The notes under the pieces: generated by a model | Databases searched by the model: none | Seen by the model: only the letters and a program-made list of their open reading frames with translations | What the model was told of the DNA's origin: nothing | Position numbers and translations under genes: made by a program | Shown here: in pieces, positions 9,696-61,405 of the stretch | Layout of the letters: each line of letters opens with the position of its first letter | How positions within the stretch are numbered: the first letter of the stretch is position 1 | Assembly (NCBI GenBank): GCA_945787125.1 | Contig: CALZHW010000001.1 | Coordinates: 8,323 to 72,322 of the forward strand | Reading direction: 5' to 3' | From: an uncultured Ectothiorhodospiraceae bacterium | Lineage (GTDB): Bacteria > Pseudomonadota > Gammaproteobacteria > S012-40 | DNA length: 64,000 bases

Positions 9696-9778
9696 TCTTT
9701 CTGCCTACAAAACGTTTTGTAGGCATGCAAGCTGCATTGTATAACTACGTCTCATTAGATTATGCTATGGAGAATTAA

Positions 9779-10996: not shown

Positions 10997-11173
10997 TTCA
11001 AAAATTACTTCCCTTAATCAGCGCTCGTAGTGGCAAGGCCTTATCGAGAGTGTTGGCAGCATGGATGCTGCCGTCAAGCCTACACGGATGTACTCACGGC
11101 GTCTCACGATAAGGTTTTGCTACTACGAGCGCTGGAAGGTGGCACTTTTGCAACTTTGAAGTCCGATTGTGAG
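10997..11173. repeat. Family-A MITE-like element
   Basis: cccttaatcagcgctcgtagtggcaaggccttatcgagagtgttggcagcatggatgctgccgtcaagcctaca...ttgaagtccgattgtgag. Left TIR degenerate. Confidence 0.75.
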
Positions 11174-11260
11174 TAGTTAAATTTCGATGACGGGAATTAT
11201 TGGGAGTATCTCTGAGTTGAAAAACGATGACTGGGCTAATTCACACTGCACGTTTCTTAT

Positions 11261-14380: not shown

Positions 14381-15823
14381 TTAACCTAACAGACTCAATA
14401 CATTTTGTGGAATTGAGTTTGCCTGAGCTAACATTGCTGTACCTGCTTGTTGCAGGATTTGCGAGCGTGTTAACTCAGCGGTTTCTACCGCAAAGTCAGC
14501 ATCACGAATTCGCGATCGAGCAGCACTCAAGTTTTCAATGCTTGTTTCCAAGTTAGATATGGTCGATGAAAAACGACTTTGCAAGGCACCAAACTTCGCT
14601 CGCTGACTACTCACTTGGGAAATTGCCGAATCAACCGTTGATAAAGCAAGGTTTGCTCCAGCAACAGTACTGACATCCAAATCAGCCACTTTCTGCAGTA
14701 CAGCTGTTTCAGAAGCCGTTGACAATACAAGAGATCCAGCACCTGTTGCAACAAAAGCTTTATCAGAATCAAATGTCACCTGGCCGGTCACATAGGCAGT
14801 ATCCGCAGTAGCATCCGCCGTTAACGTTGCAGCCCCGCCTGTGGATGTAACCGTTACATCACCTGCATTGGTAAACGTGGTATCTTGAAGATCAATATCT
14901 TTGCCGGCAAAGTTAGTTAAAGCAATTCCAGATCCGTCTTCCTTGATCGTTGCAATAACACCCGTTTTTGCTTGCTGATCATTGAATGCATTAACCGCTT
15001 GCGATAATGCATCGGTTCCAGAGGTCGCATCAATGTTAAAACTAACATCTACTGCCGTACTATTCTCTGACGCTAACGAAAAACGGTAAGTTCCTGCCGC
15101 AGCAAACGTCACGTCAGTTGTTGTTTGCGCGCTAGCTTTAACGCCGGTTTGATCAATTTTTAGATTAACCGAAGCCGCAATATCTTCTGCACTTGCACCA
15201 GCAGCAAAATCAATCGAGGATGTACCACCTGCGCCACTAACCTGAATGGAGCCTGCAGCAGCAATACGAGAGGCTGCAGCTGCACTACTATCATCACCGC
15301 TGAGACGATAATTACCATATTGTTGCGTTTTAAAGTTTGCCGTTGTCGCAACGATAGTCTCATTGGCATTTGCACCCACTTGAAATAGGGCTGTACCAAA
15401 AGTACCATCTAACAACTTTTGACCGTTAAATTCAGTCGTTTTTGCCAAACGATTCAACTCGGACGTTAACTCACCCACCTCTAATTGTAGTGCAGCACGA
15501 TCCGATGCTGAGTTAGTTGCGTTCGCTGATTGCACAGCTAATTCACGCACTCGTTGCAGAATATTTCCTGCTTCGGTTAATGCCCCTTCAGCCACCTGTG
15601 AAAGTGAAATACCATCGTTGGCATTTCGTGAAGCAACGGTCAACCCACGAACTTGTGAAGAAAAACGCTCAGAAATTGCCAAACCAGCGGCATCATCTTT
15701 TGCGCTATTGATACGCAAACCAGACGATAAACGCTGCAATGAAGTCGACAAGCTGCTCTGAGATTTATTTAAATTTCGTTGAGAATTCAACGACATAACA
15801 TTAGTATTGATCATTTGAGGCAT
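14381..15823 (-). CDS. fliC: flagellin (filament subunit), copy 1
   Basis: 480 aa with conserved flagellin D0/D1 termini ([50 protein letters not shown]...; C-terminus ...[29 protein letters not shown]) and a variable Ala/Thr/Ser-rich centre. Confidence 0.9.
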
Positions 15824-15937
15824 TTGTATGCACTCCTAAACCCGCTCGAAATGCTAGTGTGCACTCAGCACATCTCGAGGTTGTATTCAGCGGATATATT
15901 TCTGCACATTACGAAATATTCACCGCTCCCATGATTT

Positions 15938-15964
15938 TTATCGATCAAAGAGAATTTAACTTGA
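15938..15964 (-). promoter_or_regulatory. candidate sigma-28 (FliA) promoter for flagellin gene 1
   Basis: Reverse strand reads TCAAGTTA-N11-ATCGATAA (consensus TAAAGTTT-N11-GCCGATAA), about 105 nt upstream of the ATG. Confidence 0.35.
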
Positions 15965-15989
15965 ATACAAATTGCCGGTTTTTGGTAAA

Positions 15990-16215
15990 ACGTTGCCGCT
16001 TTGAACTACTAGGAGCAATTGTCGACGAGTCCATGGATGGATGAAGGTACGAATCCATGGATGGATGAAGGTAGAACAATGCAGGAGCAATTGTCGAGAA
16101 CAATGCACTAGGGCAGGACGCCCATAGGTACGAGCCCATGGATGGGTGAAGGTAGAACAATGCAGGAGCAATTGTCGAGTATAACGCAGGAGCAGTTATC
16201 GAGGAGCAATTGTCG
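15990..16215. repeat. tandem direct-repeat tract between the two flagellin genes
   Basis: Motif AGGAGCAATTGTCGAG at about 16011, 16083, 16162 and 16203, with a degenerate copy at 16189. Motif CCATGGATGGATGAAGGTA at about 16031, 16055 and 16137. About 80-bp higher-order unit repeated twice. Confidence 0.6.
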
Positions 16216-16385
16216 AGAATGGAAGCTGTAGCAAGGGAAGTTCACAAGTGCAGTATTTTCGATCGTTTGAGCTTGAGCCCTAACTATCTACAGAAAACGA
16301 TCGAAAAATCTTTGCGAAACCAGCTTTCCGCGCAACTGCCAGGGTGCGGATGTACACACCCGTGCGATTGAGTGAATTCTATGGA

Positions 16386-16477
16386 CTCACAATCAGAGTT
16401 CAAAGTTACAAAAGTGCCGCCTTCCAGCACCCGTAGCGGAAGGTGGCACTTTTGCAAGTTCGAAGTCCGATTGTGAG
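16386..16477. repeat. Family-A element, short hairpin-only variant (92 bp)
   Basis: ctcacaatcagagttcaaagttacaaaagtgccgccttccagcacccgtagcggaaggtggcacttttgcaagttcgaagtccgattgtgag: only the outer palindrome is present. Lies 45 bp downstream of the flagellin-2 stop. Confidence 0.7.
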
Positions 16478-16523
16478 TTACTGAAAACTGTATGCACTAG
16501 AAGACAAACAACATTACTCTATG

Positions 16524-17969
16524 TTAACCCTGCAACAAGCTCAATACATTTTGCGGTACTTGATTCGCCTGAGCGAGCATCGCAGTGCCTGCTTGCTGTA
16601 AGATTTGCGACCTGGTTAACTCGGCGGTTTCTACCGCAAAGTCAGCATCCATAATTCGCGACCGAGCAGCGCTGAGATTTTCAACTGACGTTTCAAGATT
16701 AGAGATAGTAGAGACAAACCGGTTTTGCAAAGCACCAAACTTTGCCCGTTGTGAACTGATCTGCGCCAGCGCAGAATCAGCAATAGACAGCGCCAGATTT
16801 GCATTATCAACTGTACCAATATCAAAGTCCGCAACCTTCATTAAAATCGATGCGGATGAAGCCGCTGAGGCAACTATTGATGCAGTGCCCTGCATGGTAA
16901 ACGCTTTGGTTGAATCAAATGTTATGCGGCCAGATACGATTGCGTTATCTACTGTGGTATCTGCATTTAACGTGATTGATGAATTTAATGTATCAACAAC
17001 AACATTACCAGAATTTGCGAAATTCGTATCCTGCACAGTAATATTTTTACCCGCATGTTGGGTCAAAGAAATTCCGCTGCCATCATTTTTAACGGTAGCT
17101 ATCACCCCGGTTTTAGCTGAAGCATCATTAAATGCCGATGCGGCTATTGAAAGTGCTTCTATACCAACAGTATCTGAAATGTTAAACCCTATGGTTTCTG
17201 CAACGGCATTATCACCCATGATGCGCAAACTATATGATCCAGCCGCCGTAAAACTCAAATCAACCTCAGTAAAAGCTGAGGCAGTTACCGCGGTATTTTC
17301 GTTAACCAGGTTAATCGAGGTTGCGATGTCTTCTGCCGTATCAGTTGCTGCATAAGTGACTGTAGCAGTGCCACTGGAACCACTAATCGAAATCGAGCCA
17401 CCTGCCGCGAAACGACTTGCTGCAGCCACAGAATCATCAAAACCTTCAATACGATAATTGCCGTATTGTTGGGTTTTAAAATTTGCCGTAGTGGCAACAA
17501 TTGATTGATTGGCGTTGGAACCCACCTGAAATAACGCCGTGCCAAAGGTTCCATCAAGAATTTTCTGTCCATTAAACTCTGTTGACTTCGCAATCCGATC
17601 CAACTCTGCCGTCAATTGTGAGACTTCCAGTTGCAGCGCTTGCCGGTCGCTCGGAGAATTAGTCGCATTAAGTGACTGTATGGCTAACTCTCGCACCCGC
17701 TGCACGATATTGCCTGCCTCCTCCAACGCACCCTCGGCCACCTGGGACAGCGAAATACCGTCATTTGCATTTCTTGCAGCCATCGCCAGGCCTTTAATTT
17801 GCGAGGTAAAACGCTGCGATATCGCAAGTCCGGCCGCATCATCTTTTGCGCTATTAATTCGCAAACCTGATGACAAACGTTGCAATGATGTCTGCAACGA
17901 ACTTTGTGATTTATTTAAGTTGCGTTGGCTGTTTAAAGACATGATGTTAGTGTTGATAATTTGAGGCAT
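16524..17969 (-). CDS. flagellin, copy 2
   Basis: 481 aa, paralogous to copy 1 with conserved N- and C-terminal helices and a divergent central domain. Confidence 0.9.
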
Positions 17970-18072
17970 AATACTCTCCAGAATATTTCATGCTCTGTAA
18001 GATTTCATTAAAAGAAAACACACTTTTAGAAATACTGCAGAGTTTAATTTTTACAATGGTTTTTGTAGTTAA

Positions 18073-18090
18073 TTGCAACCATCTTGCCAA
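18073..18090 (-). promoter_or_regulatory. candidate sigma-54 promoter for flagellin gene 2
   Basis: Reverse strand reads TGGCAAGATGGTTGCA (GG-N10-GC with a perfect -12 TTGCA), about 90 nt upstream of the ATG. Confidence 0.45.
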
Positions 18091-18161
18091 CTAATAACTC
18101 TTGCCGCTTTAGGCATTTTTCTTCCGCTTAAATGCGCCACTACACTTCATTCACTTAAAAA

Positions 18162-19460
18162 TTATAAATAGTTAAACAATGATAGATTTTGTATTTTGGC
18201 ATAGGCTGATTGAGCGGCTTGCAAGCCGGTTAATTGCAAATTCAAGCGTGTTATTGCTTCAGCATAATCAAGATCTTCTATACTGGAAAGCGTGGTTTTC
18301 ATTTGCAAGGTAAAAGACTCGTTGATTTCCAACTGTTTGTCGACTGTATTCATCCTGGCACCAATCCGTGCACGCACTTCCAGTACCCGTCCGATACCTT
18401 GATCAATGTCAGTAATTGATCGATTTATCTTATTATGAAAAGCGGCCAAATCAGACGATGTCGATTGCGGGCCTCGCAAAGCATCAATGAAATTCTGTAC
18501 AGTGCTAAAAAGACTTTGATTGTTACTAGGTTCAATTGTAAAAATATCTTGTTCTAATGGTGGGCCTGCAGCAGCAGTCGGACTACCCGTAATATTAACT
18601 TTCACCCCTAGCTCATCAAGCCCCGCAATAACAGCACCTTCTTCATACACAACTCCCGCAAAGGCGCCACCTAAAAAAGCAGCCTCCGCTAACCCAACTT
18701 GCACTGCGGGTTCGATGATAGTGTCATTGCCATCCAGCACATAGTATTCTACCGGATCTATATTACTGCCTGAGGCAGGTGGGATAAACTTGATTTTATA
18801 ATTATCAGCAACAAAGGCGCCTGAAATACTGCCAGGATCGATAATACCTGAGCCTTTGTTGTTCGCGTCATCCAATGTTTTAAACGTGCCATTACCATTT
18901 TTAATTGCTAAAAATGTATCTGATCCAGAGTCACCAACAGCAACCTGAGTCGATGAACCCACTTTTAAAAATCGTTGACCATTATCGCCATAGTAAGAAA
19001 AATTACCTACCCCATCAGCGTCGAAAGGCTTGGTTTTCCCCTGATAACCTGAGAATATATATTCTCCATTGCTATCAGCAGTATTTGCCAAAGAAACTAA
19101 TTGATCCAACAGTTGTTCAACTTCTTCAGCGACAAAAGCTCTGCTCTCTACGGTTTGACTATCGTTGTTTCCCAGAATCATCAACTCACGAATGCGTTGC
19201 ACCGCAACACCCACTCCCTGTAGTGTGCCTTCAGATAAACCCATTCGACTTTGTGCGAAACCGGCATTAGACTGGTATTGTTCATTTAGTCCAATATTTT
19301 CATCGAGATCCAGTATCCGTGTAGATCCATAAGGATCATCAGAAGGTGACAACAAGCGCTTGCCAGTTGACACTTGCAGTTGTGTATCACTTAATTTCTT
19401 TTGCTGCTCCAACATTGCAGAGACAGAAATTTGTGACATCAAAGTAGTTGATACTCGCAT
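18162..19460 (-). CDS. flgL: flagellar hook-filament junction protein FlgL (HAP3)
   Basis: 432 aa, N-terminus MRVSTTLMSQISVSAMLEQQKKLSDTQLQVSTGKRL and flagellin-like termini. Follows flgK. Confidence 0.85.
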   Translation of the reverse strand: MRVSTTLMSQISVSAMLEQQKKLSDTQLQVSTGKRLLSPSDDPYGSTRILDLDENIGLNEQYQSNAGFAQSRMGLSEGTLQGVGVAVQRIRELMILGNNDSQTVESRAFVAEEVEQLLDQLVSLANTADSNGEYIFSGYQGKTKPFDADGVGNFSYYGDNGQRFLKVGSSTQVAVGDSGSDTFLAIKNGNGTFKTLDDANNKGSGIIDPGSISGAFVADNYKIKFIPPASGSNIDPVEYYVLDGNDTIIEPAVQVGLAEAAFLGGAFAGVVYEEGAVIAGLDELGVKVNITGSPTAAAGPPLEQDIFTIEPSNNQSLFSTVQNFIDALRGPQSTSSDLAAFHNKINRSITDIDQGIGRVLEVRARIGARMNTVDKQLEINESFTLQMKTTLSSIEDLDYAEAITRLNLQLTGLQAAQSAYAKIQNLSLFNYL

Positions 19461-22467: not shown

Positions 22468-22666
22468 TCACAATCGGAATTCAAACTATTCCTAGGAATC
22501 AGCGCTCGTAGTGGCAGGGCATTATCTTATAGAGAGTAGAGAGTGTTGGCAGCAGGGATGCTGCCTTCAAGCCTACAAGGACGTATTCACGGCGTCTCTC
22601 GGTAAGGTTTTGCCGCTGCGGGTGCTGGAAGGTGGCACTTTTTTCATTTTGAACTTCGATTATGAG
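22468..22666. repeat. Family-A MITE-like element
   Basis: ctcacaatcggaattcaaactattcc...gcgctcgtagtggcagggcattatc...tgaacttcgattatgag. Inserted between flgI stop and flgJ start. Confidence 0.8.
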
Positions 22667-22669
22667 TTA

Positions 22670-26248: not shown

Positions 26249-26527
26249 AGTCAGCACCCGCAACGGTAAAGCCTTGCCGCTACGGGTGTGCTGGAAGGTG
26301 GCACTATGCAACTACTGAACTCTGATTGTAAGTTACAATCAGAGTCAACTACTCTCCATAACCAGCGTCAGTAGTGACAAAGCCTAATCGAGAGTGTCGG
26401 CAGCATGGATGCTGCCGACAAGCCTACAGGGACGTATTCACAGCGTCTCTCGATAAAATTTTGCCACTACGGGCGCTAGAAGGCGGCACTATGCAACTTA
26501 TGCAACTACCGAGTTCCGATTATAAGT
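26249..26527. repeat. Family-A elements: truncated right-half copy (26249-26332) abutting a full copy (26333-26527)
   Basis: First copy ends ...ggtggcactatgcaactactgaactctgattgtaag. A full copy ttacaatcagagtcaactactctccataaccagcgtcagtagtgac...gagttccgattataag follows immediately. Lies between flgF start and flgE stop. Confidence 0.8.
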
Positions 26528-29900: not shown

Positions 29901-30096
29901 TCTCAAGTTTCGGGGCTCAACTAGTCTCCATAACCAGCGCCTGTAGTGGCAAAGCCTTATCGAGAGTGTTGGCATTGGCAGCCTGGAAGCTGCCACCAAG
30001 CCCACAGGGACGTGTTCGCGGCGTCTCTCGGTAAGGTTTTTGCCGCTACGGGTGCTGGAAGGTGGCACCTTTACAACTTTGAACTCCGATTGAAAG
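29901..30096. repeat. Family-A MITE-like element
   Basis: ...ctccataaccagcgcctgtagtggcaaagccttatcgagagtgttggcattggcagcctggaagctgcc...ggtggcacctttacaactttgaactccgattgaaag. Lies between cheR stop and flgB operon promoter. Confidence 0.8.
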
Positions 30097-30147
30097 TTAG
30101 GATAATGGTGTGGGGAACTTACTAAATTCTCAAAAAATACAGACTAA

Positions 30148-33381: not shown

Positions 33382-33873
33382 ATGAACGAATTATCTTTTC
33401 TGGAACAACTCAGCCGAGTACTCAACACGCAAATCAAACTCAGTGATGACTTACTTGCATTAGCAAAGCAAGAATACGACATTTTAAGCAGCAATGATGT
33501 GAGCTCTTTAGCCAGTATTGCAGAGCAAAAAAAGCCAATCATTGCTGATCTGGAAAACCTCACTCAAGCCTGGTTCGTCGTGCTAAAAAATAAAGGTGTG
33601 GAATTAAGCGGCGACGGCATAAACCAGTTTCTCAGAGAGATAGATGTTGCGAGTAATTCCCAATTGTTAACTACCTGGCAATTGCTACAAGAAAAAGCGA
33701 TAGAATGTCAGCAGAAAAATACTATCAATGGTTCAGTTATCGCCATGCGACAGCAAACAACCCAAAAAACCATTAACTTATTACGCGGATTTAACAGCGA
33801 ACATCATTCATACGATCACTTCGGCAACGAATCCAACACTTATTCAGGTGGTAATTCTCTAGCCAAAGCATGA
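33382..33873 (+). CDS. flgN: flagellar export chaperone FlgN
   Basis: 163-aa helical protein immediately after flgM (stop and start abut), which is the canonical flgM-flgN arrangement. Confidence 0.65.
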   Translation: MNELSFLEQLSRVLNTQIKLSDDLLALAKQEYDILSSNDVSSLASIAEQKKPIIADLENLTQAWFVVLKNKGVELSGDGINQFLREIDVASNSQLLTTWQLLQEKAIECQQKNTINGSVIAMRQQTTQKTINLLRGFNSEHHSYDHFGNESNTYSGGNSLAKA

Positions 33874-34514
33874 CCTTCTCGTTGTAGACGATTTAGGTCT
33901 TGCGGTGTATCAATATCCCACAATTGATCAGCCAAGGCCCAGCTCAAATTTGAGCGCTTTAGATTGCGTAGGGTTTGCTGCATTACTTCAGGTGTGCCCC
34001 AAGCTACTTGTGAAAAAACAATGGGTGCTATTCGCTTCGCCGCAATAAGCACATAACCACCATCCTCGGCTGGATTAAAAACCATATCGTTATTTTCCAG
34101 TAAGGACAAAGCAGTTAATATTGTCTCTTGATTAATCACCGGGCAATCAGTGCCAATCAACACGACACGCTCATATTTATTCAATGACGCTGTTATCGCA
34201 TGTAACATTCGCTCACCCAGATCACAACCTTGCTGCAAACAAAGCGCTAACTCATGCTGCTGTTTTATCTTTTCGAAAAACTCTGGCATATCATTACTCC
34301 CCAACCAAAGCTCAACTTCCCATTGAAAACTTGACCGTATGTCATCCGGTAAAACAGCGTTTATGGTATACATAACTAATGCGGCCTGAAAGTCAGCGGC
34401 GCCCTGCTCTCCCAACGCGGGAATTAAACGGGTTTTGGTAAAACCAGCAACGGGTGCTTTGGCAAAGATAATTACCAGGTTGGAATCAACAGATGACATG
34501 CACTTAATACTCAC
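33840..34514 (-). CDS. DUF2064 / TIGR04282-type nucleotidyltransferase-fold (MobA-like) protein
   Basis: 224 aa, VIIFAKAPVAGFTKTRLIPALGEQGAADFQAALVMYT...VLIGTDCP: the GT-A/MobA-like fold family that co-occurs with TIGR04283 glycosyltransferases and Cys-rich radical SAM proteins. Its 3' end overlaps the flgN 3' end by 34 nt (convergent). Confidence 0.55.
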   Translation of the reverse strand: MSIKCMSSVDSNLVIIFAKAPVAGFTKTRLIPALGEQGAADFQAALVMYTINAVLPDDIRSSFQWEVELWLGSNDMPEFFEKIKQQHELALCLQQGCDLGERMLHAITASLNKYERVVLIGTDCPVINQETILTALSLLENNDMVFNPAEDGGYVLIAAKRIAPIVFSQVAWGTPEVMQQTLRNLKRSNLSWALADQLWDIDTPQDLNRLQREGHALARELPPE

Positions 34515-34576
34515 TATTGGTGTTCAACGACTGTTCAACTAGCATTCAAGGACTCCGAAGGTGGCACCTTCCATCG

Positions 34577-34760
34577 CCCACAACATTCAAACTATCCTCC
34601 ATAATCAGCACTCGTAGTGGCAAGACTTTTCGAGAGTGTTCGCAGCAGGGATGCTGCCGTCAAGCCTACAGGGATTTATTCACGACGTCTCTCGGTAAGG
34701 TTTTGCCGCTACGGGTGCTAGAAGGCGGCACTTTTGCAACTTTAAATACTGAAGTTTAAG
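34577..34760. repeat. Family-A MITE-like element
   Basis: cccacaacattcaaactatcctccataatcagcactcgtagtggcaagacttttcgagagtgttcgcagcagggatgctgccgtcaagcctacaggg...gcacttttgcaactttaaatactgaagtttaag. Inserted between the GT2 and DUF2064 genes. Confidence 0.75.
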
Positions 34761-35444
34761 TTAATAATATTTCCTAACTAACTTATGCGGTGAAACACCC
34801 AAAAAAAACGCCAAACGCAAACGCCACATTAAAACAATCGTTTTCCAAATACCTTTTTGCTCCCAACGACGACTTGACGTCAGTACTTTTTGCGCCAAAC
34901 AAACCGGACGCGAGTTTTTTTTCAGTGAGTTAGACAGAGAAATATCTTCCATCAAAGGGATTTCTACAAAGCCCCCTAGCTTTTCAAAGACTGATTTTTT
35001 AACAAAAATGGCTTGATCGCCCGTGGCAATGCCGGAAAGTTTCGAACGCCAGTTGATCATAAATTCTATCAGGCGAAACATCCGGTGCCTACCTGATAAC
35101 TGCACATCAAATCGCCCCCAATCTCTCCTGCTAGTTTGCAGTGCGCTAAAAATAACAGTGTCAAACCTTGCTGGCAAACGGGTATCAGCATGCAAAAAAA
35201 GCAAAATTTCGCCAGTCGCTTTGCTCGCCCCAAGATTCATTTGCACAGCGCGCCCAGCATGACCGGATTCAAAAACTTTGTCAGTATAAGCTCGAGCGAT
35301 ATCCACCGTGTGGTCACAACTGCCGCCGTCAACCACAATCACTTCCAGACCATCAAGCTTGCATAATAACGCTAAACCAGTCGCGATAGTTTCCTGCTCG
35401 TTCAGCACAGGAATAATGATACTGAGCCGACATGTTGCAAACAC
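34761..35444 (-). CDS. GT2-family glycosyltransferase (TIGR04283-like)
   Basis: 227 aa, LSIIIPVLNEQETIATGLALL...EVIVVDGGSCDHT...LFLHADTRL: the GT-A DxD (VDGGS) and LHADT motifs typical of this small GT2 subfamily. Confidence 0.6.
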   Translation of the reverse strand: MFATCRLSIIIPVLNEQETIATGLALLCKLDGLEVIVVDGGSCDHTVDIARAYTDKVFESGHAGRAVQMNLGASKATGEILLFLHADTRLPARFDTVIFSALQTSRRDWGRFDVQLSGRHRMFRLIEFMINWRSKLSGIATGDQAIFVKKSVFEKLGGFVEIPLMEDISLSNSLKKNSRPVCLAQKVLTSSRRWEQKGIWKTIVLMWRLRLAFFLGVSPHKLVRKYY

Positions 35445-35451
35445 AGCGCGG

Positions 35452-36414
35452 TTATCCTAAAGCACCACCACAACTACTGCCCTGCCCTGCGGTACAACCA
35501 TAGCAATGATCCGCGATAATAATTGACTTGTCTTGCAACGCATCCACCTTGATATCATTAATATGCATTTTACCCTTGCCTGCTTTACGCATGGGTAAAT
35601 CCAGCATTTGATTGAAGTCGCAGTCATAAATATAACCCAGGTAATCCACACTGATCAGGCTTTTACACATGACAGAACTTAAGTTATCAGCCGAATAACT
35701 ATTGCGCAACAATTGCATATATTCACTGAACTGACCTTTGGAAATCAATGTACTGCCAAAACGTTTGATTGGCATATTCGTAATAGTAAATAAATTATTA
35801 AACACAATGTCGTATTTTTCTTGTAGTATATTTTTATAATCGCTTTCCAATTCAACCTGCGACGGTGGCAAAACAGGGCCGGTCGGGTTATAAACCAGAT
35901 TAAGCACTAAATCGCTATTGGCTTTACCGTATCCCAATGCATTTAATTTCTTCAACCCAACCATGCTGCCATCAAACACGCCTTTGCCGCGTTGTTTATC
36001 GACATTTTCTTGCAGATAACAGGGTAATGAAGCAACGACCTCGACTCGCTGTTCAGCAAGAAACTCCGCTATACCCTCATATCCAGGCTCACTGAGAATC
36101 GTTAAATTACAACGATCGATGACATGCACATCTAGCTCTCTAGCAGCAACCACCAGTGTTCGAAAATGCGGATTCATCTCCGGCGCACCACCGGTTAAAT
36201 CCAACGATTTTATGCGGTGTTTTTGCAGAAAAGCAATCACCTGCTGAATGGTTTCCAATACCATATTTTCTTTTCGCTTGGGGCCAGCATTAACATGGCA
36301 ATGCAAACACTGTTGATTGCAGAGGTAGCCTAAATTGACTTGCAACGTCTCCAGTTTATGGCGTTTAATCGCAGGAAAGTCAGTCACCTTGAGTAAAGGC
36401 AAAGTTGCATGCAT
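35452..36414 (-). CDS. radical SAM / C-terminal Cys-rich domain protein (ArsS-like, TIGR04167 family)
   Basis: 320 aa. CxxxCxxC radical SAM cluster motif (CNQQCLHCH) near the N-terminus and a C-terminal Cys-rich tail (DHCYGCTAGQGSSCGGALG). Adjacent to the GT2 and DUF2064 genes, the conserved trio. Confidence 0.7.
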   Translation of the reverse strand: MHATLPLLKVTDFPAIKRHKLETLQVNLGYLCNQQCLHCHVNAGPKRKENMVLETIQQVIAFLQKHRIKSLDLTGGAPEMNPHFRTLVVAARELDVHVIDRCNLTILSEPGYEGIAEFLAEQRVEVVASLPCYLQENVDKQRGKGVFDGSMVGLKKLNALGYGKANSDLVLNLVYNPTGPVLPPSQVELESDYKNILQEKYDIVFNNLFTITNMPIKRFGSTLISKGQFSEYMQLLRNSYSADNLSSVMCKSLISVDYLGYIYDCDFNQMLDLPMRKAGKGKMHINDIKVDALQDKSIIIADHCYGCTAGQGSSCGGALG

Positions 36415-36533: not shown

Positions 36534-36695
36534 CCTAGAATAATCAGTTGGCGCGAATTTTTAGTGCAAGATATTGAAGTGCATAGTGAATTCAAGAATT
36601 GCATGGTCACCTAATTGGTGATCTGCATATTTTTGAATTTGCTAGGCGCATCAAGAGCTTGTGCTAGAAATCGTGGTTCAACTGATTAATCTAGG
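36534..36695. repeat. Family-B MITE-like element (162 bp, 17-bp terminal inverted repeats)
   Basis: cctagaataatcagttg...caactgattaatctagg. About 96% identical to the copy at 47981-48142. Confidence 0.7.
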
Positions 36696-36743
36696 TTCAA
36701 CTATTCAATTAGATGCAACAGCCAATAAAATGTTACAAGCTTA

Positions 36744-37364
36744 ATGGACTATCCCGATTACACGCACGAACGCGTACTCATACAAGAACTTATCAACGGT
36801 GAAGAAGCGGCTTTTCGTCACGTGGTTAAACAGTATCACCAATCGATGCTTTATGTGGCACATTCTATCGTTGGTTCAGCGATTGCCGAGGAAGTCGTGC
36901 AGGAAGCCTGGGTTTCGGTGATTAAGGCTTTACCCGGTTTCGAGAGCCGCTCGGCGTTAAAAACCTGGGTTTTACGCATTGTCAGTAATTGCGCAAAAAC
37001 CCGGCTACGCAAAGAATCCCGCAGTATCGCCATGGGGGATGCCAATGACCTTGAATTTGCCGCACTTCCAGAGGCGCGTTTTCGTGAAAACGGTCACTGG
37101 GCATCAGCTCCCAGACGATGGAATATTGCATCCCCGGAAGCAATACTCGCCAGCGAAGAATTAAAAACTGTCATTTATACCGCGATTGAGTCATTACCCA
37201 TCATACAGCAAACAATACTGACTTTCCGTGACATGGAAGGCATGAGTATGGACGAAATTTGTAAGATTTTAGACATTAGTGAGTCTAATAGCCGTGTATT
37301 GCTGCACCGAGCACGTAGCAAAATTTGGCAAGCTATTGAGAAACATCAGGATGAGCCATGTTAA
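36744..37364 (+). CDS. ECF-type RNA polymerase sigma factor (sigma-70 family regions 2 and 4)
   Basis: 206 aa. Region 2 (LQEAWVSVIKALPGFESRSALKTWVLRIVSN) and region 4 HTH (MSMDEICKILDISESNSRVLLHRARSKIWQAIE). Confidence 0.8.
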   Translation: MDYPDYTHERVLIQELINGEEAAFRHVVKQYHQSMLYVAHSIVGSAIAEEVVQEAWVSVIKALPGFESRSALKTWVLRIVSNCAKTRLRKESRSIAMGDANDLEFAALPEARFRENGHWASAPRRWNIASPEAILASEELKTVIYTAIESLPIIQQTILTFRDMEGMSMDEICKILDISESNSRVLLHRARSKIWQAIEKHQDEPC

Positions 37365-37606
37365 GTTGTAAAGATATCAGTCAATTAGCCAGCGAAAACT
37401 TCGATAAGACATTATCGCCGATGCAACGAATGCAATTCAGAATGCATCTCTTGATGTGTCATAATTGCCGTCTATTTGTCAGTCAAATGGCCTTAACCAT
37501 TGAAACAATCGCTACTATTACCCCGCTACAACCCAATGACCCACAAATTCATGAACAAGCAACGAAGTTAATGGCTATTTCCAAAACGATGATAAACAAA
37601 GAATAA
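37358..37606 (+). CDS. zinc-finger (zf-HC2) anti-sigma factor
   Basis: 82 aa overlapping the sigma gene by 7 nt. H-x3-C-x2-C motif (HLLMCHNCR), characteristic of ChrR/RsrA-like anti-sigma N-terminal domains. Confidence 0.55.
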   Translation: MLSCKDISQLASENFDKTLSPMQRMQFRMHLLMCHNCRLFVSQMALTIETIATITPLQPNDPQIHEQATKLMAISKTMINKE

Positions 37607-37765: not shown

Positions 37766-39481
37766 ATGAGTAAACTCATTACCCCCCATGGCGGCAGATT
37801 AATCAACCTTTATCTTGCTGAAGATGATGTTCAGAAAGAAAAAGAGATGGCTCAGGAAATCCAATCCTGGGATCTCACCCACCGACAAATTTGTGATATT
37901 GAATTATTGCTCAATGGTGGATTTTCTCCACTAGACGGTTTCATGTCCGAGACTGACTATGATTCTGTGGTAGAAAATTTACGTCTGGCTGACGGCACTT
38001 TATGGCCCATGCCGATCACTCTGGATGTAAAAAAAGACTTTGCTGAACAAGTTTCTGTTGGCGAAACCATTGCCTTGCGCGACCAGGAAGGGGTACTGAT
38101 TGCCACCCTAACAATCTCTGATATATGGACACCCAACAAATCCAATGAAGCAACCAAAGTTTTCGGTGCTGATGATCTCGCCCACCCGGCGGTCACCTAT
38201 CTGCATCATCATGCCGGTGAAGTTTACCTTGGCGGTAAATTGAAAGGCGTTGAAGCGCCCAACCATTACGATTACAACCATTTGCGTGATACACCCGCTG
38301 AGCTTCGGACTAAATTTGAAAAATGGGGCTGGAAACGTGTGGTTGCCTTCCAAACACGCAACCCAATGCACCGTGCACACCAGGAACTGACCTTTCGCGC
38401 CGCGCAACAAGTAGAAGCTAACTTGCTCATTCAACCGGTGGTCGGCATGACTAAACCGGGGGATATCGACCATTACTCTAGGGTGCGTTGTTATCAACAT
38501 GTGCTCGATCAATATCCTCAACAAACCACAACACTGAGCTTATTGCCGTTGGCCATGCGCATGGGTGGGCCACGTGAAGCTGTGTGGCATGCACTGATTC
38601 GCAAAAACTATGGTTGCACCCACTTCATCGTCGGCCGTGACCACGCGGGACCCGGCAGCAACTCTCAAGGCGAAGATTTCTACGGTCCTTATGATGCACA
38701 GGAGATGGTTAAAGAGTTTGAGGATGAAATAGAGATCGAAATGGTGCCCTTCCAAATGATGGTATATGTGGAAGAAAAAGCCGAATACTATCCAATAGAT
38801 GAAGTCGATAAAGAAGCCAATACCGTGTTAAACATTTCTGGTACCGAATTTCGCCGTCGCTTGCAGGAAGGCCTGGATATCCCTGAATGGTTTACCTACC
38901 CTAAAGTAGTAGAAGAACTGCGCAAAACCCGTCCACCAAAACACCTACAAGGCTTCACGATATTTTTTACTGGCCTTTCTGGCTCCGGAAAATCAACCAT
39001 TGCGAATGCTTTATTGGTGAAACTTCTGGAAATGGGCGGTAGAAATATTACCCTGCTAGATGGCGATGTTGTCCGTCAGCATCTTTCAAGCGAATTGGGC
39101 TTTTCCAAAGAACACCGAAATCTCAATATCGAACGGATTGGTTATGTCGCGAGTGAAATCACCAAAAATGGTGGCATCGCTATTTGCGCGCCCATCGCGC
39201 CCTATACGGCGACTCGACAGAAAGTAAGAGATATGATTTCACCACTCGGTGGCTTTATTGAAGCGTATGTAGCTACACCACTAGATACATGTGAAGAACG
39301 TGATCGCAAAGGACTCTACGCCAAAGCACGCAAAGGTATCATTAAGGAATTCACGGGTATTAGTGATCCTTACGAAGTACCAGAAAACCCTGAGTTATCC
39401 ATCAATACCCAAGAGTATTCCCCTGATCAAGCTGCACAGCTGATTTTGTTAAAACTGGAAAAACTGGGGTTTATTAAATAA
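37766..39481 (+). CDS. bifunctional sulfate adenylyltransferase (ATP sulfurylase, Sat-type) / adenylylsulfate kinase (CysC)
   Basis: 571 aa. N-terminal ATP-sulfurylase (QTRNPMHRAH, GRDHAGPG motifs) fused to a C-terminal APS kinase P-loop (GLSGSGKSTIANAL). Confidence 0.85.
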   Translation: MSKLITPHGGRLINLYLAEDDVQKEKEMAQEIQSWDLTHRQICDIELLLNGGFSPLDGFMSETDYDSVVENLRLADGTLWPMPITLDVKKDFAEQVSVGETIALRDQEGVLIATLTISDIWTPNKSNEATKVFGADDLAHPAVTYLHHHAGEVYLGGKLKGVEAPNHYDYNHLRDTPAELRTKFEKWGWKRVVAFQTRNPMHRAHQELTFRAAQQVEANLLIQPVVGMTKPGDIDHYSRVRCYQHVLDQYPQQTTTLSLLPLAMRMGGPREAVWHALIRKNYGCTHFIVGRDHAGPGSNSQGEDFYGPYDAQEMVKEFEDEIEIEMVPFQMMVYVEEKAEYYPIDEVDKEANTVLNISGTEFRRRLQEGLDIPEWFTYPKVVEELRKTRPPKHLQGFTIFFTGLSGSGKSTIANALLVKLLEMGGRNITLLDGDVVRQHLSSELGFSKEHRNLNIERIGYVASEITKNGGIAICAPIAPYTATRQKVRDMISPLGGFIEAYVATPLDTCEERDRKGLYAKARKGIIKEFTGISDPYEVPENPELSINTQEYSPDQAAQLILLKLEKLGFIK

Positions 39482-39879: not shown

Positions 39880-40068
39880 AATTTCTCCTGTTGCCCCTTT
39901 TGTGTAGGGGGATTATTTTATTGGCTCTACACCACAATTAAAACACTATTATGGCAAGGGTATTCATAATTATATAATGACTTTATAATGGAGACGAAAG
40001 CAAAAAAATCAAGTAGGGGTATTCCGTCGCGACTGACTTATCCACTACATCTTGATATCAGGATTTAA

Positions 40069-40254
40069 CTCACAACCGGAGTTCAAAGTTGTAAATGTGC
40101 CACCTTCCAGCGCCCGTAGCGGCAAAACCTTACCGAGAGACGCCGTAAATACATCCTTGTGGGCTTGACGGCAGCATCCCTGCAACACTCTCGATAAAGG
40201 CCTTGCCACTACTGGCGCTGATTACAAGGAATAGTTTGAACTCCGAAACTTAAG
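40069..40254. repeat. Family-A MITE-like element (opposite orientation)
   Basis: ctcacaaccggagttcaaagttgtaaatgtgccaccttccagcgcccgtagcggcaaaaccttaccgagagacgcc...ctctcgataaaggccttgccactactggcgctg...tttgaactccgaaacttaag. Overlaps the last codons of asnB. Confidence 0.8.
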
Positions 40255-47980: not shown

Positions 47981-48142
47981 CCTAGAATAATCAGTTGGCG
48001 CGAATTTTTAGTGCAAGATATTGAAGTGCATAGTGAATTCAAGAATTGCGTGGTCACCTAATTGGTGATCAGCATATTTTTAAATTTGCTAGGTGCATCA
48101 AGAGCTTGTGCTAAAAATCGTGGTTCAACTGATTAATCTAGG
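47981..48142. repeat. Family-B MITE-like element
   Basis: Near-identical to 36534-36695. Begins 1 nt after the ABC gene stop codon. Confidence 0.75.
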
Positions 48143-50290: not shown

Positions 50291-51193
50291 TTAGACCAAA
50301 GAATCAAACAGTTCAATAGCTTCAGGCAAAGCGCTGTAATTGAATCGATAACAATCGCATTGTTGGATCAAATCGCTTAATACTTCAAACCCGGTTGCAC
50401 CCAAAATATGATAATTAAATGTTTGCTGTGCGACCTCCATAAATGTGTGACCTTTTGAAAATTCTGTAAGTTTTGTCTTACTTGATGCTTGATACTGGGG
50501 CAAGATGACCCATTGAGCTGGCGCGATCTCATTGGCTCTTTGCACGCTCTCTAGTGGTGCTTTTAAATGCGATACCGTGCCTTTGTGCGTATCGTACGCA
50601 ACCTTGCCAAAAATTGGCTTTGCAACAAAATTCTTGATGATATCAATGGATTCGTTTTTTAAACTGATGGGCCTTGGTACCGGCGTAACAGACAGATCTT
50701 CCAGTGATATCAGCGCCAATTCATCAGAAAACAAACGCCAACCATTATTGACCAATGCAGAACACAAGGTGCTTTTTCCGGCACCGGGAGCACCCGGCAT
50801 AATAACCACCTTGCCATTTTTTTCTATCACCGCGGAATGAATCATTAAATATTGATGCGACTGATTGGCAATAGCCCAATTCAAACCCCACTCAAATTGC
50901 GCATAAGCCTGATCAATCGGCAAGGGAGTGAAGGGCTGGGTGCCGTCGTTATTAAAGATGGCCTGCCGCTTGAAAAATCGACGAAAGCCTGAGCCTTGCT
51001 CAATTTGAATGTAAATGTCCGCAAAATCGGCATGTATTTCGGCCTCATAAACGTCATACAGCCGGTAAATATCTTGCGCAACATTATGGATGGTACTGCA
51101 AATATTGACCTTATAAGGCCCAATATTTATGGTCACACCGTTATGAGAAATTTCAGTGTGAAAGAGTTTCGGGCAAATCTGGGAAAGTATCAC
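50291..51193 (-). CDS. HPr kinase-related protein (HprK-related kinase A-type), P-loop kinase
   Basis: 300 aa. C-terminal-domain-like P-loop VIMPGAPGAGKSTLCSAL as in HPr kinase/phosphorylase. No N-terminal HprK domain. Confidence 0.6.
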   Translation of the reverse strand: MILSQICPKLFHTEISHNGVTINIGPYKVNICSTIHNVAQDIYRLYDVYEAEIHADFADIYIQIEQGSGFRRFFKRQAIFNNDGTQPFTPLPIDQAYAQFEWGLNWAIANQSHQYLMIHSAVIEKNGKVVIMPGAPGAGKSTLCSALVNNGWRLFSDELALISLEDLSVTPVPRPISLKNESIDIIKNFVAKPIFGKVAYDTHKGTVSHLKAPLESVQRANEIAPAQWVILPQYQASSKTKLTEFSKGHTFMEVAQQTFNYHILGATGFEVLSDLIQQCDCYRFNYSALPEAIELFDSLV

Positions 51194-51464
51194 TTGGGTA
51201 GTTTACGATGAATCCTTGAGAACTAAGACTAAGCAAATGCTGTTCCAGTGAGAAATTTAATACTTTATCACTGGGAAATTCAAACTTTACCTTTAAGTTT
51301 TGAGCGAGATCACCCAGCCCGTGAGGCTGAGATTGCAGTAAGGTCAATATTTCTGAAGAAAGCGTATCGAGCAAGTGCGTTGAGCCAGAATACCGGTCGA
51401 AGATTATGGCTTCATCCGCCAGCTTTTTTATGATAAAACGGTTTTGTTTGTCAATTTGCCACAT
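51153..51464 (-). CDS. PqqD-family protein (RiPP recognition element-like peptide chaperone)
   Basis: 103 aa, RFIIKKLADEAIIFDRYSGSTHLLDTLSSEILTLLQ is a pattern typical of PqqD/RRE winged-helix proteins. Overlaps the kinase gene by 41 nt. Confidence 0.5.
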   Translation of the reverse strand: MWQIDKQNRFIIKKLADEAIIFDRYSGSTHLLDTLSSEILTLLQSQPHGLGDLAQNLKVKFEFPSDKVLNFSLEQHLLSLSSQGFIVNYPSDTFPDLPETLSH

Positions 51465-51489
51465 TGGCTAGGTTTAGCAGAATTAAGAT

Positions 51490-52245
51490 TTAGGTAAAGC
51501 TACTCACGAACAGGTCAACGATATCCTGGGTGGTCAAATTTATTGTTCTTCCCGCGATAATATATTCACCGCCGCCCATTGCCCCCAATAAATACAAATC
51601 CACCACCTGGTATGGCTGAAAGAAATAACCTGCAGGAATATCCGAAGACAAACCAGAGTTCACTGCGTTAAGGTAACAGGCGGTAGCAAACCGTGCCAGC
51701 TCAAAATCAGTTTGGTTTAATGCGAGAGATTCAAGGTGCGGATTCAGTGTACCCACAGCATATTCGCAAAAATTTGCCCGGTATTTGTCAAGATTGGCGA
51801 ATTTAGGATTACCTTTATATCCTTTGACAGCTTTACAGTCGTCCACCGAGTCCACGTTCTTCAAACTTTCAGATAACGCAAAAATCTCGAATAAATTCAA
51901 ATCAAGATAATTTGTAAAAAGAGGATCCTCAAATGGGTGAAATATACTCGCAAAAGTTGTCGCTTTTCTATCTAAAACCGAAAACTTTCTCGTCTGCTTC
52001 CAGTATCCCGGGCTCCTGCCAAAAGCGTAGGCACCAACGTTACAAGGAGCAGCACCACCACCTACCGACATATTACCGGAGACCATTCCAGAAAAATTGC
52101 AGGTGTTGGATAATACCGGACGACTATGCATGGTCATTAAGACAGGAGCACTAATCAGACCCAGCTTCATTATCTTACGTCGCGACAGATTCTGATCAGT
52201 CAATTTTTGTTGATTGTTTTCGGTATTTTCTGGTTTATTACTCAT
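51490..52245 (-). CDS. hypothetical exported protein with twin-arginine-like signal peptide; first gene of the PqqD/HprK-related cluster
   Basis: 251 aa, SRRKIMKLGLISAPVLMTMHS (Tat-like RRxxxK motif plus hydrophobic core), then Gly/Cys-rich segment CNFSGMVSGNMSVGGGAAPCNVGAYAFG. No recognisable family. Confidence 0.4.
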   Translation of the reverse strand: MSNKPENTENNQQKLTDQNLSRRKIMKLGLISAPVLMTMHSRPVLSNTCNFSGMVSGNMSVGGGAAPCNVGAYAFGRSPGYWKQTRKFSVLDRKATTFASIFHPFEDPLFTNYLDLNLFEIFALSESLKNVDSVDDCKAVKGYKGNPKFANLDKYRANFCEYAVGTLNPHLESLALNQTDFELARFATACYLNAVNSGLSSDIPAGYFFQPYQVVDLYLLGAMGGGEYIIAGRTINLTTQDIVDLFVSSFT

Positions 52246-57362: not shown

Positions 57363-57436
57363 TTTTATCCCTTTAAGGTAGTGCTATCTTATGTGTTACA
57401 AATAATAACCAGTAAGGCTCTCAATACAAACTTAAA

Positions 57437-57787
57437 ACTCAAGTTACGGAGTTCAAAGTTGTAAAAGTGCCACCTTCCTGCACCCGTAGCGGCAAAACCT
57501 TAGCGAGAGACGCCGTGAATACGTCCATGTAGGATACTCTACGGTATGGGCGACGAGGGCGGGAGGCCTATCTACAAAGACAAGCTCATGGCTTAAGGCT
57601 TGAGCGGCCTTCCCGGATACTTCTTCATCGTACTTTAAATGACCGGATTAGTCCTGTCGCATAACCTTTTGGTTACTGAATTTGATCATACAAGGCTTGA
57701 CGACAGCATCCGTGCTGTCAACACTCTCGATAAGGCCTTGCCACTACGAGTGCTGATCACGGGAAATAGCTTGAACTCCGATACTTG
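57437..57787. repeat. Family-A element split by a nested ~170-bp insertion (left half 57437-57528, insert 57529-57698, right half 57699-57787)
   Basis: The left half actcaagttacggagttcaaagttgtaaaagtgccaccttcctgcacccgtagcggcaaaaccttagcgagagacgccgtgaatacgtccatgtagg and the right half cttgacgacagcatccgtgctgtcaacactctcgataaggccttgccactacgagtgctg...ttgaactccgatacttg together reconstruct one element. Confidence 0.65.
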
Positions 57788-57947
57788 CGTTAAAACATGC
57801 ACTGCAAACAAATATCAATGAATAATTAGAAAGATTCGGCCATACAAAAATTAGAACCAAAAATATTAAATATTCCGCCTTATGGTAATCTGCATTTTAT
57901 AGTTACTCAGTGCTGCATCACGGAAAAACTTATTATTTTTACAAAAA

Positions 57948-58378: not shown

Positions 58379-59956
58379 GTGCTGTTCAACTCCTATATAT
58401 TCATTTTTGCTTTTCTTCCTGCAACTTTTCTCGTCTATTTTTTATTGGCTCGATACAGAGGAGGTGAAGCCGCTATCGGCTTCCTTGTCATTGCATCGTT
58501 GTTCTTTTATGGGTGGTGGAACCCCATCTATCTCGTATTAATACTGTGCTCCATTGGCGTCAACTATTTTGTTGGTGAAACCATCTCGAAAATTTGTAAA
58601 CAAAAAAACATCCTGCGAGCAAAAGTGCTACTTATTGTTGGAATTGTTTTCAATCTCGGGCTGCTCGCCTATTTCAAGTACGCAAATTTTTTCGTAGAAA
58701 ACGCTAATGCCGTACTGGAAACCAACATTCATCTCAATCAAATTATCTTGCCATTAGCCATTTCATTTTTTACTTTTCAGCAGATTGCCTACTTAGTAGA
58801 CGCCTACAAAGGAATAACTGAAGAGTTTAGGTTCATTCACTATGCTCTATTTGTCACCTTTTTCCCCCAGCTTATTGCGGGGCCTATAGTGCATCACAAA
58901 GAAATGTTGCCGCAATTTATGCGATTGGAAAACATGAAGCCGCAACTGGAAAATATTGTGATTGGCATAAGCATATTTTCTCTCGGCCTGTTCAAAAAGG
59001 TCGTGCTTGCTGATGGAATTGCGCAATACTCTACTCCGATATTTGATGCCGCAGCGTCTGGCGAAACTCTGACTTTTTTTGCTGCGTGGGGAGGCGCACT
59101 GGCTTATACCTTTCAATTATATTTTGATTTTTCCGGTTATTCTGATATGGCAATCGGGATAGCAAGAGTATTCGGTATTCGCTTACCACTAAATTTTGCG
59201 TCGCCCTACAAATCATTAAGCATTGTTGAGTTCTGGCGTCGTTGGCACATCACCTTATCGCGCTTTCTACGCGACTATGTTTACATTGCACTAGGCGGAA
59301 ACCGCAAAGGTAATGTACGTCGTTATACAAACCTGCTGACGACCATGTTGCTGGGCGGCTTATGGCACGGAGCAGGTTGGACCTTCGTATTATGGGGCGG
59401 ACTGCACGGCCTGTATCTGGTGATTAATCATATTTGGAGTCACATAAAAATACGCTTAAATCTGCAATGGCTTGATGGCTTTCGGGGTTGGCACTTTTTC
59501 AGCTGGCTGTTAACTTTCGTATCCGTCGTCAATGCTTGGGTCTTCTTTCGCGCCGAGAGCCTGAGCGCCGCACTTGAGATTATAAAAGGAATGTACGGTT
59601 TCAATGGCATTGCTATCCCGAATGCGATTTACACGCGACTCGGCAGCATGCAAGGCATACTCAATGAAGTCGGTATTAACAGTTATATAGGTGGTGGCGC
59701 TCAGTTTGTATTCACCTACTTGTGGATAGCGGTACTATTGCTCGTGGTAGTGATAATGCCAAATACACAGCAGATCATGAAAGGTTATTTACAAATTAAC
59801 GCCAAACAAGGTAATGCTCTGTTCGATGAAGGCATCGCTTCGCGCTTGATGACATTCAGGTTTAATGTCGCTTGGGCATTATTGATGGCAGGAGTGATGG
59901 TGATAGCGCTGTTTGGACTCTCCCGCGTTTCTGAATTTTTATATTTCCAATTTTAA
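58379..59956 (+). CDS. MBOAT-family membrane-bound O-acyltransferase (AlgI/DltB-like)
   Basis: 525 aa polytopic. Conserved MBOAT histidine region (WRRWHITLSRFLRDYVYIALGGNRKG) and LWHGAGW motif. Confidence 0.8.
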   Translation: MLFNSYIFIFAFLPATFLVYFLLARYRGGEAAIGFLVIASLFFYGWWNPIYLVLILCSIGVNYFVGETISKICKQKNILRAKVLLIVGIVFNLGLLAYFKYANFFVENANAVLETNIHLNQIILPLAISFFTFQQIAYLVDAYKGITEEFRFIHYALFVTFFPQLIAGPIVHHKEMLPQFMRLENMKPQLENIVIGISIFSLGLFKKVVLADGIAQYSTPIFDAAASGETLTFFAAWGGALAYTFQLYFDFSGYSDMAIGIARVFGIRLPLNFASPYKSLSIVEFWRRWHITLSRFLRDYVYIALGGNRKGNVRRYTNLLTTMLLGGLWHGAGWTFVLWGGLHGLYLVINHIWSHIKIRLNLQWLDGFRGWHFFSWLLTFVSVVNAWVFFRAESLSAALEIIKGMYGFNGIAIPNAIYTRLGSMQGILNEVGINSYIGGGAQFVFTYLWIAVLLLVVVIMPNTQQIMKGYLQINAKQGNALFDEGIASRLMTFRFNVAWALLMAGVMVIALFGLSRVSEFLYFQF

Positions 59957-59960
59957 TCAA

Positions 59961-61218: not shown

Positions 61219-61405
61219 CTCACAATCGGAGTTTAAATATTTTTCTCATAATCAACGCGCGTAGCGGCAAAACCTTATCGAGAGTGTTCGGCATGGATGC
61301 CACCCCAAGCCTACAGGGATGTATTCACGGCGTCTCTCGGTAAGGTTTTGCCGCTACGGGTGCTGGAAGGTGGTACTTTTGTAACTTTGAACTCCGAAAC
61401 TTGAG
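61219..61405. repeat. Family-A MITE-like element
   Basis: ctcacaatcggagtttaaatatttttctcataatcaacgcgcgtagcggcaaaaccttatcgagagtgttcggcatggatgcc...ggtggtacttttgtaactttgaactccgaaacttgag. Confidence 0.8.

Follow-up and report, generated by a model that had tools for sequence, protein, structure and literature searches.

In cyanobacteria the radical S-adenosylmethionine (SAM) enzyme ArsS converts dimethylarsenite, DMAs(III), and SAM to DDMAA (5'-deoxy-5'-dimethylarsinoyl-adenosine), and its gene is co-transcribed with arsM. The reference system is reportedly the arsM-arsS pair of Synechocystis sp. PCC 6803, said to be the work of Xue et al. in 2019 and Cheng et al. in 2021. DMAs(III) is the only substrate on which activity has been demonstrated in the ArsS family, and DDMAA formation is known only for cyanobacterial ArsS; the steps after DDMAA are described just generically in the literature that we searched. 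Here we analyze an arsS locus from an uncultured Ectothiorhodospiraceae bacterium, in a 64,000-nucleotide stretch (hereafter the window) of contig CALZHW010000001.1, assembly GCA_945787125.1. Its arsS gene is followed by genes for a glycosyltransferase family 2 (GT2) protein and a DUF2064 protein. We consider this cassette probably to be a member of the ArsS organoarsenical ('arsenosugar') module, an operon with a putative extracytoplasmic function (ECF) sigma factor promoter whose enzymes would serve an arsenoribosyl-transfer scheme.

The three open reading frames (ORFs) are intact and co-oriented in one operon, placed as a sequence-only reading of the window had placed them:

35452-36414, minus strand: arsS, radical SAM protein with a DUF3641 domain, 320 aa (TIGR04167; PF04055 and PF12345)
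34761-35444, minus strand: GT2 glycosyltransferase of the TIGR04283 family, 227 aa (TIGR04283; PF00535)
33840-34514, minus strand: DUF2064/TIGR04282 protein, 224 aa (PF09837), CofC/MobA-like nucleotidyltransferase fold

All three products scored above the curated cut-offs of their NCBIfam models, bearing out the family assignments and anatomy proposed in that reading. ArsS reached 469 bits against TIGR04167 (cut-off 300), covering positions 2-303 of the 303 in this equivalog model; the GT2 protein reached 283 bits against TIGR04283 (cut-off 182; positions 1-221 of 221); and the DUF2064 protein reached 195 bits against TIGR04282 (cut-off 134), with a match to PF09837 as well. The GT2 gene starts 7 nt downstream of arsS. 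NCBIfam and RefSeq already label the trio 'arsenosugar biosynthesis' proteins, so the cassette is a fairly ordinary member of a known family and the novelty that had been seen in it finds no support. Compared with the NCBIfam trio nothing essential differs: the same proteins are adjacent and co-oriented, with RefSeq homologues named likewise, and the operon in the window is split by a miniature inverted-repeat transposable element (MITE).

The ArsS translation carries the sequence CNQQCLHCH at residues 32-40, which supplies the CX3CX2C cluster motif (C32/C36/C39), and its C-terminal tail reads HCYGCTAGQGSSCGGALG. The ArsS-type C-terminal domain, on which the sequence-only reading had made its assignment depend, is present: the Cys-rich DUF3641 domain matched PF12345 with 190 bits. 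In an alignment of seven sequences nine of the ten ArsS cysteines were invariant (C32, C36, C39, C102, C250, C265, C304, C307 and C315, the last five in the C-terminal domain); the lone variable one was C132. Shared with the cyanobacterial enzyme are thus TIGR04167 membership, the CX3CX2C motif, DUF3641 and the invariant cysteines. Identity was 48% to the ArsS of Pseudanabaena plasmid pPg_02, which adjoins an arsenosugar-type arsM. No solved ArsS structure exists among those we looked for. An AlphaFold2 model (predicted local distance difference test 75, predicted TM-score 0.81) had low confidence in the cluster loop and in the C-terminal Cys tail, and its nearest structures were SPASM/twitch-type radical SAM enzymes such as BlsE, SkfB and SuiB. 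The family is very large, with at least 8000 database candidates at E ≤ 1e-10; the best 120 of these were 67-100% identical to the window protein, and several were named 'arsenosugar biosynthesis radical SAM protein ArsS'.

Related loci were collected in a scan of one genome per species, which yielded at least 596 arsS loci; 80 of these, 60-69% identical, were kept, and almost all were from Gamma-, Beta- and Zetaproteobacteria. Neighbors were counted by running hidden Markov models (HMMs) of the recurring neighbors against six-frame translations of 87 loci from other species, 45 of which extended 8 kb or more from arsS in each direction (full-flank loci):

GT2 protein: 58 of 87 loci; 37 of 45 full-flank loci
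DUF2064 protein: 46 of 87; 32 of 45
VTT/DedA-MerA-like oxidoreductase fusion: 38 of 87; 25 of 45
ECF sigma factor: 27 of 87; 18 of 45
anti-sigma factor: 21 of 87; 15 of 45
unannotated family of about 350 aa: 20 of 87; 13 of 45
ArsM-family methyltransferase: 16 of 87; 7 of 45
DUF547 protein: 14 of 87; 12 of 45
DUF3047 protein: 14 of 87; 8 of 45
TIGR03169 ('SelD-associated') oxidoreductase: 14 of 87; 10 of 45
MTAP: 8 of 87; 5 of 45

An arsenic connection is seen among these relatives. In the 16 loci with an ArsM-family gene it adjoins an orthologous arsS (60-67% identical), and in L030 and L070 it lies inside the operon, between arsS and the GT2 gene. A representative of these ArsM-like neighbors aligned to structures of the Cyanidioschyzon ArsM (CmArsM) at E = 3e-33, with its YGCG, SNCV and GC..GA motifs kept. 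The genes map, for example, to 3811-4941 in L031 and 14262-15299 in L084, with 14 other loci besides; their best NCBIfam model was that of the arsinothricin-type ArsM (366 bits, cut-off 500), and RefSeq labels them 'methyltransferase domain-containing protein'. On Pseudanabaena pPg_02 the gene order is TVP38, MerA-like, arsenosugar-type arsM, TVP38, arsS, with genes for ArsR and a phosphate-binding protein 8-9 kb upstream; the VTT and MerA-like components of the proteobacterial islands described below are thus also present at a bona fide cyanobacterial locus.

The window itself has no arsM or arsenic-resistance gene, as the sequence-only reading had said. Annotated gene by gene with Pfam, its 64 kb showed nothing but genes of other kinds, such as those for flagella, chemotaxis, arginine and rhamnose, and an ArsM-like HMM built from the neighbors of related loci had no match in any of the six frames, even with E allowed to reach 10. 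In this the window differs from the cyanobacterial system, since neither arsM nor ArsR nor any other ars gene adjoins its arsS. From this lack that reading had argued for a different substrate, a step that gains no support, given ArsM-family genes beside arsS in relatives and even within their operons, VTT/MerA-like genes shared with the cyanobacterial arsM-arsS locus, and retention of all the conserved ArsS cysteines.

A version of the idea nonetheless deserves weighing, namely that in lineages where arsM is unlinked the trio acts on a non-arsenic nucleophile (selenium, sulfur, antimony or another soft one) and, in response to thiol or oxidative stress, makes a different glycoconjugate derived from the 5'-deoxyadenosyl adduct. 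About 82% of the related loci have no adjacent ArsM-like gene, a 'SelD-associated' oxidoreductase of TIGR03169 is near arsS in 14 of 87, and certain members of TIGR04167 are selenoproteins. Thioredoxin, CcdA, peroxiredoxin-like and AhpD-like genes occur in the islands, and the promoter resembles that of the HOCl- and H2O2-responsive ECF16 group (see below). Against these stand the demonstrated activity on DMAs(III) and no other substrate, the cysteine architecture fully shared with the arsM-linked cyanobacterial enzyme, and the ArsM-like genes within orthologous operons, preceded in L084 and L054 by the same promoter-like motif as arsS. We found no positive evidence for a non-arsenic substrate, and the sat/cysC gene that gave sulfur its basis is not conserved. 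We judge a non-arsenic substrate unlikely.

The two partner proteins both have glycosyltransferase-type folds. The DUF2064 protein bears the CofC/MobA-like N-terminal motif AKAPxxGxxKTRL and matched PDB 3CGX at E = 2e-25, itself a DUF2064 structure of unknown function. Gene calls in metagenome-assembled genomes (MAGs) start this gene at an ATG, position 34499, for a product of 219 aa, and this is the probable true start. It has in common with 3CGX and with CofC/FbiD, the 2-phospho-L-lactate or phosphoenolpyruvate guanylyltransferase, the nucleotidyltransferase/GT-A fold; its match to the CofC Pfam model was weaker (27 bits, cut-off 22), its score against the CofC equivalog was far below the cut-off (38 versus 105 bits), and no F420 genes are present. 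Among 72,556 plasmids searched, ArsS homologues were found in 54 records and DUF2064 homologues in 53, on nearly the same replicons; independent cases of co-occurrence are few, because most of the records belong to one Burkholderia lineage. The searched literature did not mention DUF2064 and used the TIGR04282 and TIGR04167 identifiers merely as annotation labels, in keeping with the view that the partners are biochemically uncharacterized.

These folds raise the question of whether the cassette has nothing to do with metalloids and makes a small redox cofactor or a glycosylated metabolite, in the manner of mycofactocin or F420. The mycofactocin maturase (47 bits), MftF (34 bits) and CofC (38 bits) are among the secondary matches and point that way, as do the SPASM/twitch neighbors of the ArsS model. 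Those matches are far below their cut-offs, however, whereas the models of the ArsS trio are far exceeded; the vicinity has no genes for a precursor peptide or a cofactor; and the genomic context in relatives is arsenic-linked. Such a product is highly improbable.

Three relatives, L089, L090 and L091, are syntenic with the window. Their genes run argD/OTCase, sodB, hydantoinase, asnB, grx, anti-sigma, ECF; then, divergently, arsS, GT2 and DUF2064; then, convergently, flgN, flgM and flgA. The gene abutting the anti-sigma gene is grx, or in L091 a Fic gene. ArsS of the window is 73-76% identical to those of the syntenic relatives, comparable to the housekeeping protein AsnB (72-81%); the GT2 protein (54-57%) and the DUF2064 protein (42-51%) are less conserved than ArsS, yet intact. 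The cassette is an intact copy, probably vertically inherited, and with full-length profile matches and an ArsS conserved like AsnB it looks functional. Its flanks in the window include:

33382-33873, convergent to the DUF2064 gene: flgN (PF05130)
37766-39481: fused sat/cysC (NF004040, 981 bits)

The 3' ends of flgN and the DUF2064 gene overlap by 34 nt in convergent orientation. This overlap, the fused sat/cysC, the ECF sigma factor with its zinc anti-sigma factor, and the MITE between the GT2 and DUF2064 genes had all been reported by the sequence-only reading, and all are real. The same reading had suggested a sulfur-containing product, given that sat/cysC would supply 3'-phosphoadenosine 5'-phosphosulfate. 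We rejected this link: sat/cysC is absent from L089, L090 and L091, never recurs among the neighbors of the 87 loci, and has no copy of the promoter motif in a pattern search of the window. Since sat/cysC is not conserved by synteny, the sulfur hypothesis loses its sole basis; in the window the gene looks like a lineage-specific insertion and an incidental neighbor.

By contrast with sat/cysC, the ECF/anti-sigma pair is a conserved neighbor of arsS. In the window the relevant features are:

36744-37364, plus strand: ECF sigma factor gene, divergent from arsS (PF04542 and PF08281, TIGR02937)
37358-37606, plus strand: zf-HC2 anti-sigma gene (NF052368, PF13490)
36709-36737, minus strand: ECF-type promoter-like motif directed towards arsS, TGTAAC-N16-CATCTAA

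The sigma factor has regions 2 and 4 only. The anti-sigma gene overlaps the sigma gene by 7 nt, is translationally coupled to it, and encodes a protein scoring 60.8 bits against NF052368 (cut-off 50). Read from the sequence, this protein is 82 aa long, with a zinc motif made of C4 and H30-x3-C34-x2-C37 (HxxxCxxC) and no obvious membrane segment; the HxxxCxxC motif is shared with RsrA-type zinc anti-sigma factors. The related loci in which ECF homologues adjoin arsS include Acinetobacter and B. glumae plasmids, and the anti-sigma gene is conserved alongside. Where the window has this pair beside arsS, the Pseudanabaena locus instead has an ArsR-family regulator gene 8 kb upstream.

A conserved dyad, TGTAAG-N16/17-CGAC, was found at about 25 loci in the 120 nt upstream of arsS, where about 0.15 would be expected by chance, and never on the opposite strand. 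At one locus each, this dyad or the broader pattern given below also precedes other genes: the ArsM-like gene in L084 and L054, the VTT-oxidoreductase gene in L017, and in L085 a second gene of the radical SAM kind. A position weight matrix of strict TGTAAG-N17-CGAC sites gave no good match upstream of arsS in the window; the motif there was recognized after the syntenic relatives were compared and the -10 variants CATC and CGTC were allowed. The resulting pattern, TGTAAS-N16/17-CRWCYAA, has one match in the 64 kb on both strands (0.04 expected), which lies on the arsS strand at the position listed, and is partly post hoc because those variants were allowed after being seen. In all four syntenic genomes the motif stands immediately beside the ECF start codon, oriented to arsS:

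window: TGTAAC-N16-CATCTAA
L089: TGTAAC-N16-CATCTAT
L091: TGTAAC-N16-CGTCTTT
L090: TGTAAC-N17-GTCTCG

As an autoregulatory motif upstream of the ECF gene we saw just a weak TGTAAC-N17-CCAATT (plus strand, 36490), which was not counted.

The closest described promoters are those of ECF16 sigma factors, (T/C)GTAAC-N17-CGAA, which are oxidant- or metal-responsive (HOCl or H2O2). Caulobacter SigF, Brucella BcrS and Bradyrhizobium EcfF share with the window a -35 element TGTAAC, a C-rich -10 and a spacing of 16-17 nt. There are differences: the -10 is CATCTAA in the window or CGAC in relatives versus CGAA for ECF16, and ECF16 anti-sigma factors are multi-pass membrane proteins whereas the partner here is an 82-aa soluble zf-HC2 protein. 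The suggestion in the sequence-only reading that the ECF pair controls the cassette thus gains plausibility from the recurrent pairing and from the conserved promoter-like motif upstream of arsS, and the cassette may be switched on by the adjacent stress sigma factor.

Two MITE families have inserted in the operon region, one of which the sequence-only reading had missed (family B):

34540-34762 (approximate): family A MITE in the GT2-DUF2064 spacer, with other repeat copies in the window
36534-36697: family B MITE between arsS and the ECF gene, about 162 nt, terminal inverted repeat CCTAGAATAATCAGTTG

Both families resemble MITEs in being short, non-coding and dispersed in multiple copies with terminal inverted repeats. 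The GT2-DUF2064 spacer, 247 bp long, holds one of at least 10 related family A copies, which occur in both orientations; the contig of one same-species MAG stops exactly at the edge of this copy. Other family A copies lie at 3800-4000, 11000-11176, 16385-16480, 22496-22669, 26274-26518, 29917-30099, 40064-40251, 57432-57793 and 61235-61411, about one per 6 kb and nearly always intergenic, and contigs of same-species MAGs break at or near copies. Family B has 17-nt terminal inverted repeats and two copies in the window, the second (47981-48142) 97% identical to the one at arsS. It separates the promoter-like motif from arsS, leaving a leader of about 290 nt. L090, a 73%-identical relative, has a diverged family B copy at the same intergenic site (about 9760-9950), and L091 has none. 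In this region L089 has a DUF547 gene (7624-8397) between promoter and arsS, and L090 and L091 have a short ORF or sequence, maybe a remnant, at the place where the window has its MITE.

Both insertions, in the 5' leader and between the GT2 and DUF2064 genes, left every ORF unbroken. In L089-L091 the end of the GT2 gene and the start of the DUF2064 gene share 4-8 nt; therefore the MITE split a translationally coupled pair in the window. That loss, the two insertions themselves and the stable hairpin that the spacer copy would form in the transcript (-77 kcal/mol, z -2.6) are what could be expected of a decaying cassette whose expression has been uncoupled. Decay is nevertheless very unlikely to our minds, since the three ORFs are full-length against their profiles, ArsS is conserved to housekeeping level, and L090, with a MITE at the leader site, also keeps intact genes. 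Nor was any terminator-like site found in the arsS leader on the arsS strand; scans for sigma-70 promoters and terminators did not rise above shuffled background.

Taken as a stress-induced organoarsenical module, the most likely reading, the cassette would act through ArsS, then nucleotidyl activation, then glycosyl transfer. By orthology, the [4Fe-4S] cluster of ArsS would cleave SAM, and the resulting 5'-deoxyadenosyl radical would add to a trivalent methylated arsenical to give DDMAA; the methylated substrate would come from an ArsM encoded elsewhere in the genome or from the environment. Fold and context suggest the remaining steps. Adenine would be removed to leave a ribose-1-phosphate derivative, probably by an MTAP-type phosphorylase encoded elsewhere; the DUF2064 protein, as a CofC/MobA-like nucleotidyltransferase, would activate the sugar phosphate; and the TIGR04283 GT2 protein would transfer the arsenoribosyl group to an acceptor. 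Transcription of the operon would probably start at the ECF-type promoter beside the divergent ECF gene, with the zinc anti-sigma factor plausibly freeing its sigma factor under thiol-reactive stress such as As(III) or methylarsenite.

Several observations weigh against this scheme. For 28 kb to either side of the cassette there is no arsM and no other ars gene. The ArsM-like neighbor is present in just some 16-18% of related loci, and its family is below every NCBIfam ArsM cut-off; most loci, the window and L089-L091 among them, have no ArsM within 10 kb. An adjacent MTAP gene occurs in no more than 8 of 87. The GT2 and DUF2064 partners of arsS in the window have no counterpart near arsS in the single cyanobacterial arsM-arsS locus examined, and the searched literature reports no activity for TIGR04282 or TIGR04283. 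The -10 element in the window, CATCTAA, deviates from the commoner CGAC, and the pattern that matches it was defined after the variants had been seen. Finally, the hairpin of the MITE that follows the GT2 gene might lower the expression of DUF2064, the last gene.

Some relatives carry a longer set of genes. Betaproteobacteria, and also plasmids, carry an extended 'ArsS island' (L009, L018, L023, L033, L037, L059, L077, L084, L085 and others); among the plasmids are B. glumae bglu_2p and one of Acinetobacter with NDM-1. The island comprises the VTT/DedA-MerA-like fusion, DUF547, DUF3047, the unannotated family of about 350 aa and the TIGR03169 oxidoreductase, and also MTAP, PiT, CcdA/thioredoxin and a YiiX hydrolase. 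In the plasmid islands of Acinetobacter portensis and Burkholderia glumae there are further genes for MTAP, a phosphate transporter of the PiT type and thioredoxin/CcdA, together with the ECF/zf-HC2 pair seen in the window. Of the island genes common in Betaproteobacteria, the window cassette lacks the VTT-MerA-like fusion, DUF547, DUF3047 and the TIGR03169 oxidoreductase.

Elsewhere in the window, a flagellar cluster (4011-9695 and 14381-19460) includes three large TPR-repeat proteins in tandem and, likewise in tandem, three flagellin-domain genes, and two small neighboring ORFs at 9779-10992 had no family match. Three ORFs of 300, 251 and 422 aa within 50291-52245 and 59913-61181, near a rhamnose (rmlABCD-like) cluster and an MBOAT gene, had no Pfam match. 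For the 300-aa product (50291-51193), the public protein collection has no record with that start.

Close homologues of the cassette number in the thousands, and public databases already annotate it; what is added here is its putative control by an ECF/zinc anti-sigma pair with a candidate promoter, the two MITEs, and testable candidate roles for the two partner enzymes. Genes for the arsenosugar steps after ArsS, adenine removal and glycosidation, are unassigned in the literature that we searched. TIGR04282 and TIGR04283 are obvious candidates, and they sit here in a compact three-enzyme cassette. One may tentatively go further and picture the trio and the ECF pair as a self-contained thiol-stress module, in which the GT-A-fold enzymes carry out the post-DDMAA steps, first nucleotidylating 5-dimethylarsinoyl-ribose-1-phosphate and then transferring the glycosyl group, and hosts that have no arsM use methylarsenicals made by their neighbors, or another metalloid; this is a possibility to which we give limited credence. 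The ECF/zinc anti-sigma pairing and its motif suggest for the family an undescribed regulatory input, which in place of ArsR would respond to an oxidant or to a metalloid that reacts with thiols.

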